Shown here one piece after another: positions 50,546-55,892 of a DNA stretch of 64,000 nucleotides (its first letter is position 1; each line of letters opens with the position of its first letter). Under the pieces are notes generated by a model. The model did not search any database. It was not told where the DNA came from and was given only the letters and a program-made list of their open reading frames with translations. This stretch comes from Myxococcota bacterium (GTDB taxonomy: Bacteria > Myxococcota_A > Polyangia > Nannocystales > Nannocystaceae), in contig JBCCHT010000015.1 of assembly GCA_039028615.1 (NCBI GenBank), forward strand, positions 170,981 through 234,980, read 5' to 3'. The position numbers and the translations under genes are program-made.

Positions 50546-52570
50546 CTACTGCGCGGCCTGAGCGGGTGACTCGGCCAGCGAGGCGATGAGCTTGGGCACC
50601 GTGAACGGCCCCAGGCCGCCGATGAACTCGTCGACCTTCAGCTCACCGAGGTCGTCGGCATCGCGGCACCGCACGTTGATGGTGCCGTTTTCCGCTTCCT
50701 TCTGCCCCACCACGACCAGGTAGGGCACCTTCTGCATGGTGGCGCCGCGGATCTTGTAGCCGAGCCGCTCGTCGCTGCTGTCGACGTGGGTGCGCAGCCC
50801 CTCGGCCCGCATCGCGGTGGCGACCTGCTGGGCGTAGTCGGCGTACTTCTCGGACACGGGCAGCACGCGGACTTGCTCGGGCGCCAGCCACAGCGGGAAG
50901 GCCCCGGCGAAGTGCTCGGTGATGATGCCGAAGAAGCGCTCCAGCGACCCGTAGCAGGCCCGGTGCACCATGACCGGGGTATGGCGGGCCCCGTCGGCGC
51001 CGACGTACTCGAGCCCGAAACGGTTGGGCATGGAAAAGTCGACCTGGATGGTGCCGCACTGCCACGAGCGACCCAGCGAGTCGCGGATGTGGAAGTCGAT
51101 CTTCGGGCCGTAGAAGGCACCGTCGCCCGGGTTGACCTGGTAGTCGCGGTTGCCCGCCTCGAGCGCGCCCTTGAGCGCGGACTCGGCCTTTTCCCACACC
51201 TCGTCGCTACCGATGGACTTGTCGGGGCGGGTGCTGAGCTCGAGCCGCACGTCGTCCAGCCCGAACACGCCGTAGACCTCGAAGAAGAACGAGATCAGCA
51301 TGTGAATCTCGCTCTCGAGCTGGTCGGGCGTGCAGAAGTGATGCGCGTCGTCTTGGACGAAGGCCTGCACGCGGAACATGCCGTGGCGTACCCCGGACAG
51401 CTCGCGCCGATGCACCTGACCCATCTCGGCGATCCGCAGCGGCAGCTCGTGGTGGCTGTGCATGCGGTGCTTGTAGATCATGAGGTGGCCCGGGCAGTTC
51501 ATGGGCTTGACCGCCATGGGCCGGTCTTCTTCGCCGTCTTCTTGGCCCTTGAGCTTGCGGCGCGTGAAGAACATGTTCTCCATGTAGTGGTCGTAGTGAC
51601 CGGAGGTGTGCCACGTGGTCTCGGGCAGGATGAGCGGCGTGCGGACCTCGGCGTACTCACGCCGCTGCAGCTGCGCCCGCATGAAGTCCATGAGGCCGTT
51701 GTAGACGGTGGTGCCCTTGGGGTGCAGGAAGGGGAAGCCGGGCGCCTCCTCCACGAAGTGGAACAGGTCGAGCTTCTCGCCGAGCACCCGGTGGTCGCGC
51801 TTTTTGGCCTCTTCGAGCAGGTGCAGGTAGTCCTCGAGCTCCTTCTTGCTGAAGAAGGCCGTGCCGTAGACCCGCACCAGCTGCTCGCGGCTGGCGTCGG
51901 CGCGCCAGTAGGCGCCCGCGATCTTCATGAGCTTGGTGTGCTTGAGCCACTTGGCGCTGGGCACGTGCGGCCCGCGGCACAAGTCGATGAACTTGCCCGT
52001 GCGATAGAAGCTGACCGTGGGCGCGTCTTTGTCCCCGGAGAAGGCCCCGTGCTCCTCGAGCCCGGCGATGATCTCCTGCTTGAAGGGGTTGGCCCCGCCG
52101 TCGATGGCCACGTACTCCTGGTAGACCGCGGCGTCCTTGGCCGTGGCTTCACAGCGCTCGAAGGGGGCGTTGACCTTCGCGAGCTTGGCCATGCGCGCCT
52201 CGATGCGTGGGAAGTCGTTCTCCGACAGCGATGCGCCCTCGGGCACGTGGATGTCGTAGTAGAACCCGTCGTCCGTGGTGGGCCCGATGGTGAGCTGGGC
52301 CCCCGGGACCTCTTCGAGGATTGCGGCGGCCATCAGGTGCGCGGCCGAGTGGCGCAAGGTGTCGAGGGCCAACGGCTCCTTGTCGGTCACGATCTTCACC
52401 TGGTCGCCATCGGCCAGGACATGGCGGAGGTCGACCGGCTGCTCGTTGACCACGCCGAGCACGGAGGCCTTGGCCAGCCGCGGCGAGATGGCCTTGGCTA
52501 GATCGAAGATCGTACTGCCAGGAGGGAGCTCCTTGGCGGAGCCGTCGGGAAGCGAAACGCTGATGCTCAT
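50546..52570 (-). CDS. thrS: Threonine--tRNA ligase
   Basis: TGS domain, RHSAAHL, DLCRGPH, KRDHR, KPMNCPGH, GAFYGPKID, HRA..GSLERF. Confidence 0.98.
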   Translation of the reverse strand: MSISVSLPDGSAKELPPGSTIFDLAKAISPRLAKASVLGVVNEQPVDLRHVLADGDQVKIVTDKEPLALDTLRHSAAHLMAAAILEEVPGAQLTIGPTTDDGFYYDIHVPEGASLSENDFPRIEARMAKLAKVNAPFERCEATAKDAAVYQEYVAIDGGANPFKQEIIAGLEEHGAFSGDKDAPTVSFYRTGKFIDLCRGPHVPSAKWLKHTKLMKIAGAYWRADASREQLVRVYGTAFFSKKELEDYLHLLEEAKKRDHRVLGEKLDLFHFVEEAPGFPFLHPKGTTVYNGLMDFMRAQLQRREYAEVRTPLILPETTWHTSGHYDHYMENMFFTRRKLKGQEDGEEDRPMAVKPMNCPGHLMIYKHRMHSHHELPLRIAEMGQVHRRELSGVRHGMFRVQAFVQDDAHHFCTPDQLESEIHMLISFFFEVYGVFGLDDVRLELSTRPDKSIGSDEVWEKAESALKGALEAGNRDYQVNPGDGAFYGPKIDFHIRDSLGRSWQCGTIQVDFSMPNRFGLEYVGADGARHTPVMVHRACYGSLERFFGIITEHFAGAFPLWLAPEQVRVLPVSEKYADYAQQVATAMRAEGLRTHVDSSDERLGYKIRGATMQKVPYLVVVGQKEAENGTINVRCRDADDLGELKVDEFIGGLGPFTVPKLIASLAESPAQAAQ

Positions 52571-52630
52571 CAGATTGCCTGTTGCTTGGCCGGGAACCCG
52601 GCAAGGGCGAGGGACGACGGAGGGTAAACC

Positions 52631-52661
52631 AACGAAAAGACCCCCGGGTGGCCGGGGGTCT
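52631..52661 (-). terminator. Attenuator terminator hairpin in the thrS leader
   Basis: Minus strand AGACCCCCGG-CCAC-CCGGGGGTCT followed by TTTCGTT. Confidence 0.85.
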
Positions 52662-52692
52662 CTCACACGCGCGTGACACCACTCCGGCCGGC

Positions 52693-52740
52693 TTACGCCG
52701 TGTCGGTAGTCGTAGTGGTGCCGCGGGTCGAAGCGTGCAT
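52693..52740 (-). CDS. Thr-rich leader peptide MHASTRGTTTTTDTA (thrS attenuator)
   Basis: ATG CAC GCT TCG ACC CGC GGC ACC ACT ACG ACT ACC GAC ACG GCG TAA; 7 of 15 codons are Thr, five consecutive. Confidence 0.88.
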   Translation of the reverse strand: MHASTRGTTTTTDTA

Positions 52741-52749
52741 CGTGCGTTC

Positions 52750-52777
52750 ACCATATCGCCTGGAGCCCCAGAGGCAA
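52750..52777 (-). promoter_or_regulatory. Putative sigma70-type promoter of the thrS leader
   Basis: TTGCCT-N16-TATGGT, 9 nt before the leader ATG. Confidence 0.45.
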
Positions 52778-52832
52778 GCCCCGAGTGCAAAGCGTGATGT
52801 GCGCGGCCTGAAATGAGGACGTCCGCGCCAGG

Positions 52833-53381
52833 CTAGCCGTCGTCCTCCCAGCCCGAGATCGGGTCCGCGGGGGTGCGCGCAAAGCAGGCGAACTGGAGGG
52901 TCCGGGTGGTGCCGGGCTCGTTCACATAGCGAAGCCCGGTGAAGCCGTGCTGCCCGAAGAACTCGTTGACCGGCAGGGTACCGGGGGCGATCTGGTACAG
53001 GGTGGTCGAGCTCAGGGCGCCGTCCTCCGTGTAGACCGTGATGGAGAACGACCGCACCTCGAAGTCGGGGTCGAACACGTTGGCCTCCACGATCAGCGCG
53101 TCGCCGAACTCCAGCGGCGGCGGGGAGGGCAGCTCGCCGTCGGCCACGTTGTAGCGGGCCGTCTGGACCTCACCCTCGAAGGAGAACGAGCAGTCGACCG
53201 CGATGCCCTCGTCTTCGGCCGGGCCGTCGGCGGCCGAGTCGGCCCCGGGGGTGTCGCCTTCCGTCGCGTCGTCGTTGCAGCCGGCGTCGTCGAAGCCCCC
53301 CAAAGGGGTGGTTCCGGTGTCGCAGGCGGACATGGTCAGGGTCGCCGCAACGAAAGCCAAGAAACTCGATCGTAGTCGCAT
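52833..53381 (-). CDS. Hypothetical acidic lipoprotein
   Basis: Lipobox MSAC; acidic linker; NEFFGQHGFTGLRYV. Confidence 0.75.
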   Translation of the reverse strand: MRLRSSFLAFVAATLTMSACDTGTTPLGGFDDAGCNDDATEGDTPGADSAADGPAEDEGIAVDCSFSFEGEVQTARYNVADGELPSPPPLEFGDALIVEANVFDPDFEVRSFSITVYTEDGALSSTTLYQIAPGTLPVNEFFGQHGFTGLRYVNEPGTTRTLQFACFARTPADPISGWEDDG

Positions 53382-53420: not shown

Positions 53421-54125
53421 TCATCGACAGGCGGCGCGCACCCGGGCGGCATAGGCCGAGCCGGGGTGCCGCTGGCCGAAGGCATCACGACGACGGCGGG
53501 CTTCGGCGTTCGGGGACACGGCGCAGTCGGCCAGGATCTCGAGCGCCTCGCGTTCCTGGGACAAGATGGTGGCCGGGAACTCTTTGCGGTGGGTCGTAAG
53601 CAGGGCCTGGGCCGCGGCGGGATCACGAGCCAGCGCGACCTCGGCCTCCCGGAGCAAACGGATCTCGCGGGTGTTGGGCGCGGTGGTGGTCGAGGCGGGG
53701 CTCGGCGGACGCGACCGATTCTGGGTCGTGCTGCTCGGGCTCCGGGCGGGCGTCGGGCTCGACGGGGCTGCCGTGGTTTCGGCGGCGGGCGGAGGCGGGA
53801 CGGCGGGGTCGGCCGCGGGCGCCCGCGAAGGGGTGACCGTCGACGAGTCACCGTCGGACTCGCGGTGCTCGTAGACCGCCTCGTTGGGGCTCGCGGCCGG
53901 GTCGCGACGGGAGGACAGCGATTGCACGGCCACCAGGTGGACCACGAAGATCGCGGCCGCAGCCGCGGCCGCCCCGACGCCCATGCCGGCCAGCCATCGA
54001 CGGACGACCTGGTGCTGGGCCCGGGAGACGTTGCGGGCGACCTGGAGGCGCAGGTGCTTGGGGGGCCGACGCACCTGGCGGTACGCGGCGACCATGTCGG
54101 CGAGCTGTCGCTCCGTGGGGTTCAC
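53421..54125 (-). CDS. Putative anti-sigma factor (TM, Pro-rich linker, TPR-like C-terminus)
   Basis: Overlaps the sigma factor stop; EIRLLREA...HRKEFP...ERE...C...HPGSAYAARVRAAC. Confidence 0.7.
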   Translation of the reverse strand: MNPTERQLADMVAAYRQVRRPPKHLRLQVARNVSRAQHQVVRRWLAGMGVGAAAAAAAIFVVHLVAVQSLSSRRDPAASPNEAVYEHRESDGDSSTVTPSRAPAADPAVPPPPAAETTAAPSSPTPARSPSSTTQNRSRPPSPASTTTAPNTREIRLLREAEVALARDPAAAQALLTTHRKEFPATILSQEREALEILADCAVSPNAEARRRRDAFGQRHPGSAYAARVRAACR

Positions 54126-54646
54126 GAGGCGGCCTCCATCGCGCGCTGGTCGGCGGTGAAGCGGGCGAACGCCTCGCGGGCGGTGCGGACCCGCGAGTAC
54201 ACGGTGCGGGTGGGCACGCCGAGCGCCTCGGCCACGGCCCGCGCGGTGAGTCCTTCGAGCTCGACGGCCACGAACGCCTCGCGCTGGCGGGCGGGCAGGC
54301 TGTCCATGAACTGGTCGAGCAGGTCGGCCGCCTGGCGCAAGGCGACCTCGTCATCGGGGTCTCGAGCGGGGGCGGGCTCGGGCACGGCGCGCAGGCGAGC
54401 CTCACGGCGACGCTGGCTTCGCAGGTAGTTGCGGGCGACGTTGCGGACCACGGTGAACAGCCACGCGCGCAGCGAGCCGCCGTCGAACTCGTCGAGGCGG
54501 CGGCGGACCACCAAAAACGCCTCCTGGGTCACGTCGTCGGCCGCTCCGGGTCCTGCGACTGCGTGAGCCACGCGCCAGACATAGTCGAAGTGGCGGCGAA
54601 ACACCTCCTCGAAGCCCAAATTCGTCGTGCGTCCATCGCCTGCCAC
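54122..54646 (-). CDS. ECF RNA polymerase sigma factor
   Basis: DDVTQEAFL, LRAWLFTVVRN, region 4 VAEALGVPTRTVYSR. Confidence 0.92.
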   Translation of the reverse strand: MAGDGRTTNLGFEEVFRRHFDYVWRVAHAVAGPGAADDVTQEAFLVVRRRLDEFDGGSLRAWLFTVVRNVARNYLRSQRRREARLRAVPEPAPARDPDDEVALRQAADLLDQFMDSLPARQREAFVAVELEGLTARAVAEALGVPTRTVYSRVRTAREAFARFTADQRAMEAAS

Positions 54647-54706
54647 GCCTCGTGTCCTGGATGTCCGGTCGCCGACTTAAGTACCGAATCGCGGCGAAAC
54701 AATCTC

Positions 54707-55768
54707 CTAGGGGATTCGAAATGACACGGTGGCCCACGCTCGGCCCGCCACCAGCCCGGTGGTGAGCAGCGGAAGGGTGGGGCCGAAGGTGAAGGTGTGG
54801 CGCAGCAGGGCGACCGACAGCTCGGCGCGCAGGCCCAGGGCCAGGCGGGGGACGGGCGCCCACCGCAGGCCGCTACCGAGCACTGCGGTGGCCCACGGCA
54901 CGGTCTGCTCGAGGTCGGCATCGGAGCCGAAGCCCTGGGCCGCGATGGCGCCCGCGGCCACGCCCGCGAGGACGGGTAGTTCGAAGGGCCCGGGTCGAAA
55001 CAATGGGCCGGCCTCCACGACGCCCGTGGTGAACGATATCTGGCCGCCTGCATCGTCGATGCCCGCCAGCAGCACGCGGCGGCGCACGATGTGCTCGGCT
55101 CGCGCGGTGACCTGCCATCGGCGACCGACCAGCGAGACGTGCCCCTGGAGGGATGCCCCTGTGGCCGGCAGGTGCCCTCCGACGACGCCCGCGCCCGCAC
55201 CGAACAGAACGCCAGGACGACGGCGCGGCTGCGCCTGAGCATCGGCCGAGCCCGGGCTCGGGTCCGTGGCGTCGGGTTCGGCGGGTGACGGCTCCGTCGT
55301 CGAATTCGAGGTTGCGTCGGGTGGTGGCTCGATGGGTTCGGGGTCCGATGGCTTCGCGGGAGGGTCCGGCGTCTCGGGTTCCGGTACGGCGGGCGGCGGT
55401 GCCACGGGGACCTCGGTGTCTGCGGTGGCGGGCCCCACCGCCAACGCGATCGCGAGCGCAGCCGTCTGGGCCGCGGCATCGCAGCTCGGGGCGCTGAGCG
55501 AGCGGGAGAACGGACCCTCGCGGGTCTGGCCGTCGATCTGCACCGCCCACTGCCCCGCGTCGTTGGTGCGGACGTCGACTCGCGCGGTGAAGCCCTCGGC
55601 CGTGTCCCCTCGCGGTCCCAAGTGCTCGTCGATCATCTGGCCCACCGCGTCGGCCGACGGACACTGCCTTGGAGCATCCCAATGCAGACGCCCGCCGGCC
55701 GACAGCGACACCGGGCTCGCGGGGGCGAGCAGAAGCCCGACGAGGGGCAGGGAAGCGAGGGGCGACAT
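54707..55768 (-). CDS. Exported protein with N-terminal disulfide domain, Pro-rich linker and beta-barrel-like C-terminus
   Basis: Signal peptide; WDAPRQCP...RSLSAPSC; alternating beta strands ending ATVSFRIP. Confidence 0.7.
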   Translation of the reverse strand: MSPLASLPLVGLLLAPASPVSLSAGGRLHWDAPRQCPSADAVGQMIDEHLGPRGDTAEGFTARVDVRTNDAGQWAVQIDGQTREGPFSRSLSAPSCDAAAQTAALAIALAVGPATADTEVPVAPPPAVPEPETPDPPAKPSDPEPIEPPPDATSNSTTEPSPAEPDATDPSPGSADAQAQPRRRPGVLFGAGAGVVGGHLPATGASLQGHVSLVGRRWQVTARAEHIVRRRVLLAGIDDAGGQISFTTGVVEAGPLFRPGPFELPVLAGVAAGAIAAQGFGSDADLEQTVPWATAVLGSGLRWAPVPRLALGLRAELSVALLRHTFTFGPTLPLLTTGLVAGRAWATVSFRIP

Positions 55769-55892
55769 CACGTGGGGGCGGCGGGGACGCTACCAGAGTC
55801 TGCGCGTCGTTCGGGATGGCCGCGAAACGGTCACGGCACGGTCAATTCGCCCGCGGGGCGACGTCGGCCGCGGAGCGCGGCCAGCGCTCGGC

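Follow-up and report, generated by a model that had tools for sequence, protein, structure and literature searches.

A conserved, predicted threonine attenuator upstream of thrS in Nannocystaceae

The thrS gene, which encodes threonine--tRNA ligase, is controlled in E. coli by autorepression through an operator for ThrRS and in Firmicutes by T-boxes. The locus considered here raises the question of what a very short, threonine-rich open reading frame (ORF) is doing just ahead of thrS in a bacterium of the family Nannocystaceae (Myxococcota). It lies on the minus strand of a 64,000-nucleotide stretch of DNA, called the window below, in which all positions are counted from the first letter. Our answer, given with high confidence from the arrangement, its conservation and folding models, is that the ORF very probably belongs to a classical ribosome-stalling transcription attenuator, which would increase transcription of thrS under a shortage of charged tRNA-Thr.

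A threonine-rich ORF ahead of thrS and its relatives

The thrS gene of the window (50546..52570, minus strand) codes for 674 aa, is identified by TIGR00418 (643 bits for a cut-off of 384) and gives a single tblastn match in the 12.3-Mb genome, of which it is the sole copy. Its ATG at 52570 agrees with the proteins of relatives, which match from residue 1. Along the minus strand, the threonine-rich ORF comes first, then a terminator-like hairpin and then thrS, so that a short ORF rich in cognate codons stands ahead of the cognate gene, as in an attenuator. The ORF (52740-52693) has 15 codons followed by TAA. Seven of the codons specify threonine: five consecutive ones (ACC, ACT, ACG, ACT and ACC, at 52719-52705) and two more at 52728-52726 and 52701-52699. 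This ORF had been described in the same terms by a sequence-only reading of the DNA, which also expected ACT to be rare at this GC content; indeed, over 3608 long ORFs from the genome, ACT accounts for 4.0% of Thr codons and Thr for 5.3% of all codons. Since the tRNA-Thr anticodons of the genome are GGU (one), UGU (one) and CGU (two), ACT must be read by wobble, and it may perhaps be the most sensitive of the Thr codons in the leader. ARAGORN also called one tRNA-Ala(AGC), one tRNA-Leu(AAG) and one tRNA-SeC in the genome. The AGC (Ala) and AAG (Leu) anticodons are unusual in bacteria, and these two may be false calls.

The combination is unique in the genome. Runs of five Thr codons occur 236 times in any frame and 15 times within a short ORF, and only this leader also has a hairpin and a T-run behind it. 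Among 532 short ORFs located before 651 terminator-like sites, 29 contain a cluster of one amino acid, and five Thr in six residues are found here only. Five other candidates from this last scan were rejected, as none had a cognate leader linked to a promoter and placed ahead of a matching gene. Besides, no cognate-codon leader was seen before ten other synthetase or synthesis genes of the genome, namely thrC, pheS, trpS, leuS and hisS, together with valS, ileS, metG, hisZ and proS, which were assigned by weak cross-matches only. Further upstream on the same strand (53421-55771), the window holds an ECF sigma factor gene (54646-54122) between two unassigned ORFs.

The predicted promoter stands remarkably close to the ORF. 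A -10 hexamer is predicted at 52750..52755 (minus strand), 9 nt before the leader ATG and in a sigma-70-type position, and a -35 hexamer at 52772..52777, with a 16-nt spacer as in relatives. With the usual sigma-70 spacing, the transcript would start some 2-3 nt before the leader ATG, which predicts leaderless or near-leaderless translation of the ORF. A consensus promoter scan returned no promoter in the window at its threshold of 9, the candidate having 8 of 12 matches. In 22 related loci that were scanned for promoter pairs (the window, whose pair was located separately, and L011 being omitted), a TTG-led hexamer lies ahead of a TAnnnT box in 19, with a spacer of 16 nt in all 19. The start codon follows the TAnnnT box by 5-9 nt in 19 of 23 leaders; as the rule used in the leader search demanded such a box 5-16 nt before the start codon, the independent promoter evidence is the fixed spacing of the -35 hexamer. 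The nearly leaderless transcript proposed by the sequence-only reading, still a prediction, is thus supported by promoter spacing in the window and in relatives.

Conservation was followed on the ThrS tree of the family. The closest named relatives of the window's ThrS come from Myxococcales, Deltaproteobacteria and Nannocystaceae MAGs (72-84% identity). The ThrS N-terminus was matched in 71 of 73 family genomes. A FastTree tree of 100 rows divides these genomes into three groups; it leaves out one short row and eight loci that were duplicate, partial or not ThrS, and retains 20 of the remaining distant loci. The clade of the window's ThrS comprises 24 genomes from 7 genera (support 99), and the rule-based search recovered an ORF of 12-24 codons containing Thr, together with a terminator, in 23 of them. 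The one exception is L009, which has no leader; among the 23, the ORF of L010 has only two Thr codons, and L011 is divergent. In L009, a terminator-like hairpin is kept and a -10-like box follows it, as if thrS had gained a new promoter. An absence of Thr-rich ORFs from related thrS leaders, which the sequence-only reading had named as evidence against itself, is therefore not what the relatives display.

The 23 leaders devote 126 of 312 non-initiator codons to Thr, compared with 5.3% genome-wide, and the first half of the peptide is unconserved. Their Thr codons are ACG (50), ACC (48) and ACT (28), never ACA, a synonymous variation that is expected if the amino acid itself matters. ACT is present in 20 of the 23 and, in 15 of these 20, stands five codons before the stop. 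The distance from the stop codon to the end of the T-run is 56-64 nt in 19 of 21 leaders measured, and 83 and 89 nt in the other two. Finally, a covariance model trained on 22 of the leaders detects these at 52-101 bits, one per genome and always before thrS (the training members match by construction), and nothing else above 34 bits over the 73 genomes.

Predicted hairpins, the switch and competing readings

The RNA from the ORF to thrS is predicted to offer the three alternative structures of a classical attenuator. A hairpin resembling an intrinsic terminator (3:4; 52664-52635, minus strand) has 13 pairs, of which 8 are G-C, a 4-nt loop and an energy of -23.5 kcal/mol; the T-tract behind it is short in the window, the stem's last C being followed by four T and then CG. 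The sequence-only reading had placed this terminator at 52661-52631, so that its hairpin and T-run are confirmed with coordinates that were a few bases off. The 5' arm of the terminator is segment 3 (52650..52664), whose 52659-52650 part is also the predicted partner of segment 2 (52675..52689). In ViennaRNA, this 2:3 antiterminator pairs 52689-52678 with 52659-52650 at -23.7 kcal/mol, equal in energy to 3:4. Segment 2 may alternatively pair with segment 1 (52714..52722), which overlaps the Thr run, to form a protector helix over the control codons. The 9-bp helix predicted between 52722-52714 and 52683-52675 encloses the heptamers previously proposed for 1:2 (52720-52714 and 52683-52677), and the 2:3 partners previously given as 52688-52675 and 52660-52651 are in nearly the same register as those of ViennaRNA. 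A small hairpin whose loop contains the stop codon (52689..52700) caps the 1:2 helix in most single-sequence folds. In such folds, the free RNA adopts the protector helix and the terminator, and the leader is more stable than all of 200 shuffled sequences (z = -4.34). On a genome scale, T-runs following G-C-rich hairpins continue with GTT in 25% of 214 cases, compared with 6% of 13521 T-runs devoid of a hairpin. The attenuator shares this GTT tail, which may be a terminator tail typical of the lineage.

In the mechanism that we propose, a sigma-70-type promoter would start the RNA a few bases from the leader ATG, so that almost no 5' leader would precede the translated ORF. When Thr-tRNA is ample, the ribosome would reach the stop codon and cover the first half of segment 2, leaving the 3:4 terminator to form. 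When Thr-tRNA is scarce, the ribosome would wait on the Thr codons, covering segment 1 and freeing segment 2, which could capture segment 3 before segment 4 is made and so let the polymerase read into thrS.

This proposal was modelled by masking the ribosome footprint and cutting the RNA before segment 4, an equilibrium model of a kinetic process. In the window, the top of the terminator's 5' arm is held upstream with a probability of 1.0 with the ribosome on the Thr codons, 0.04 with the ribosome at the stop and 0.82 without ribosome. The sequence-only reading had suggested folding the leader with and without the Thr codons constrained; under the ribosome mask, the modelled switch between Thr codons and stop is clean for this leader. 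It is only partly clean over the 23 leaders, which average 0.88, 0.44 and 0.39, respectively (9-nt footprint). The antiterminator is held in 22 of 23 with a ribosome on the Thr codons, and only 7 to 11 of 23, according to the footprint chosen, count as switching under a strict criterion (1 of 23 under a stricter first version). At equilibrium, the full-length RNA of 21 of the 23 leaders keeps the terminator despite a stalled ribosome; the switch must therefore be kinetic, as is accepted for classical attenuators. Since the cut window RNA prefers 2:3 when free of ribosome (0.82), termination without translation would rest on 1:2 forming first. Taken with the conservation in 23 of 24 genomes and the changed upstream context, the mask folding of the window fits the trp/thr/his-type architecture claimed by the sequence-only reading.

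Comparative evidence on the pairings themselves is more modest. When segments were swapped among 22 leaders, the mean 1:2 energy was -22.6 kcal/mol with own partners, -21.3 kcal/mol with partners from the same genus and -19.6 kcal/mol across genera. Within-genus permutations reached the observed energy in 394 of 20000 cases for 1:2 and 840 of 20000 for 2:3, figures to be read knowing that kin are not independent. The test gives modest backing to own over swapped segment pairs, and the 1:2 duplex of the window itself is not much better than with shuffled partners (z -0.8). In L119, an A-U pair replaces a G-C pair in 2:3. On a sequence alignment of 22 leaders, RNAalifold recovered the terminator and neither 1:2 nor 2:3, because segment 2 aligns poorly by sequence. 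The terminator pairs are kept in 96.5% of cells and mostly invariant, with a two-sided change in one of nine. As for the alignment of leaders that the sequence-only reading proposed, a Thr-containing ORF is conserved in 23 of 24 genomes of the clade, and the two-sided change seen by RNAalifold is that of the single terminator pair.

Three other readings of the locus have to be weighed. The first is that the leader is a general sensor of ribosome speed or coupling, in which the ORF is translated, ACN repeats are kept mainly for pairing with segment 2 and the response is not specific to Thr. The third bases of the Thr codons are paired in the 1:2 helix in 94 of 126 cases, leaders with only two or three Thr codons exist (L010 and L121), and in the stall model most internal codons, whether for Thr or not, lead to read-through. 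We nevertheless regard this sensor as improbable, since the run is always in the Thr frame, occurs before thrS only and uses three synonymous codons, and the ACT five codons before the stop is maintained as described above even though, in 19 of 28 cases, ACT has either no pairing or a G-U pair.

Stalling on Thr codons must also be set against an ordinary constitutive terminator for upstream transcription, with the ORF untranslated and a thrS promoter located in the following 65 nt. An upstream gene (53381-52833) does lie on the same strand, hairpin-plus-tail sites are common in the genome (214), and L009 has a terminator-like hairpin with no leader. However, the promoter, ORF and hairpin remain associated in relatives whose upstream genes are not the same, and the hairpin is separated from thrS by anything from 37 to 169 nt, in which inspection reveals no shared promoter. 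We regard this explanation as very improbable. The least credible reading is that a ligand reads the RNA directly, either ThrRS at an E. coli-type operator or uncharged tRNA at a T-box, the ORF being incidental: thrS is known to be controlled in these ways in E. coli and Firmicutes, but in the window no Rfam family scores at gathering level, which applies to the T-box models as well, no T-box is among the five weak Rfam matches at 52500-52900, and the leader is ~110 nt long with a conserved open frame, start and stop. In the E. coli type, ThrRS binds hairpins that mimic the tRNA-Thr anticodon beside the ribosome binding site; in the relatives, the stretch ahead of the thrS ATG varies in length as given above.

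Two leader types and the ThrS lineages

Turning to the origin of the attenuator, three MAGs are sister to the clade of the window's ThrS, one from Planctomycetota and two from Myxococcota, and no such leader was found in them (one of the three having only ~155 nt upstream). The N-terminus of the window's ThrS type was found in none of 160 other Myxococcota genomes (best E 1.9e-34, compared with 5e-71 or better), which suggests that this thrS came into the family from elsewhere. L026, L027, L131-L133 and L151-L159 have a third ThrS type, on a long branch and with 35-38% identity to that of the window; it takes the place of the others in genera g7 and g10 and in part of g14, and thrS has therefore been exchanged repeatedly in the family.

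Outside the window's clade, 47 family genomes have a ThrS match, and 46 were examined (G077 lies at a contig edge). Eight of them, all of genus g14 (L012 and L124-L130) and in one clade (support 100), carry a different Thr-run ORF before thrS. This ORF has 22-40 codons and finishes with the Thr run. A TTGAC-led promoter is present in 7 of the 8, and the alternative hairpins come with a weaker T-tract. The g14 ThrS clade is distant from the window's, and its sister genera have no leader. The covariance model of the window type gives at most 19 bits on the g14 leaders, compared with 52-101 bits for its own training members, a result compatible with a common as well as a separate origin. The remaining 38 family genomes have no Thr leader by inspection, and many have a tRNA-Val(GAC) directly before thrS.

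These observations open the tentative, yet far from negligible, possibility that Thr attenuators were born twice in one family, on two distant ThrS lineages: the near-leaderless window type of 12-17 codons, on a ThrS clade absent from the other Myxococcota sampled, and the longer g14 type, inserted with its own promoter between tRNA-Val and a resident thrS. Alternatively, a single leader may have moved between thrS genes and then diverged.

The search was extended to more distant thrS loci. The leader was found in none of 11 loci of the same class outside the family and none of 60 loci of the phylum picked from 153 matches (two with short flanks); among these 60, five have a loose Thr cluster lacking the layout and 15 an upstream tRNA-Val. 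By inspection, none of 77 distant thrS loci (four with short flanks) has this layout; 13 of the 77 have a short ORF with at least three Thr in six residues, terminators being unscored. In L157 and L158, the Thr run ahead of thrS was not accepted as a leader, since it lies mid-ORF with no terminator seen. In Myxococcota, a tRNA-Val(GAC) commonly stands immediately before thrS (L013-L028, L134-L150 and L164-L223), and it is inverted in L160, L161 and L125-L127. In genus g8 (L028, L162 and L163), a conserved short ORF follows a TTGACA-type promoter before thrS. It has scattered Thr codons, no run and no clear terminator, and is possibly a third leader type.

Known leaders and significance of the locus

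The thrL leader of enterobacteria, which senses Thr and Ile, is among the closest counterparts. Both combine a Thr-codon run in a short ORF, the 1:2, 2:3 and 3:4 layout (predicted in the window) and an intrinsic terminator. In contrast to thrL, which controls a synthesis operon, the window leader has no Ile codons, precedes a synthetase gene that it would control and has a predicted near-leaderless start. The best sub-threshold Rfam match in the window is RF00506 (Thr_leader), over the whole model, with 23.6 bits (E 0.027) for a cut-off of 55; the leader would thus act like thrL while staying outside this family. The E. coli thrS operator and the Firmicute T-box share with the leader the gene and the presumed signal, that is, the supply of charged tRNA-Thr or of the enzyme, and differ from it in their sensors. 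Besides, Lopatovskaya, Seliverstov and Lyubetsky reportedly listed thrS in 2010 among genes with predicted classical attenuation, with delta-proteobacteria among the taxa.

Leader peptides ahead of synthetase genes are also in print. According to PMC8079986, S. lividans thrL is a leaderless leader peptide of 18 codons located before thrS, with two Thr codons and no clear terminator, and is assigned to threonine. This bears out the caution of the sequence-only reading that novelty may be limited to this lineage. Compared by description only, the leader of the window, in another phylum, differs in having 7 Thr codons out of 15 and the full set of terminator and antiterminator. PMC1262725 predicts classical attenuators before Streptomyces trpS and leuS, takes pheST as the proteobacterial model and reports that no threonine leaders were found in Actinobacteria. 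E. coli pheM-pheST and these Streptomyces loci resemble the window in placing a cognate-codon leader, an antiterminator and a terminator before a synthetase gene, and differ in amino acid and lineage. The main text of PMC2965389 describes how synthetase genes switch between T-boxes and leader peptides and refers to E. coli thrS autoregulation, with no mention of thrS leaders. In the literature searched, which left most subscription journals outside, we found no description of a myxobacterial thrS leader.

To conclude, the mechanism is a textbook one and leader peptides of thrS are already known from earlier reports or predictions, so that the gain lies in distribution and evolution and not in principle: what is added is this unannotated myxobacterial element, a well-conserved, probably regulatory mini-gene. 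With its complete, predicted terminator and antiterminator set, it would add a third control of thrS beside E. coli autorepression and T-boxes, and near-leaderless translation is predicted for it in a Gram-negative lineage. The two leader types found in one family form a small natural series on how attenuators arise. If they do stem from two births, they would record a recent and traceable de novo birth of an attenuator, in an organism with no such leader on the other synthetase genes examined.
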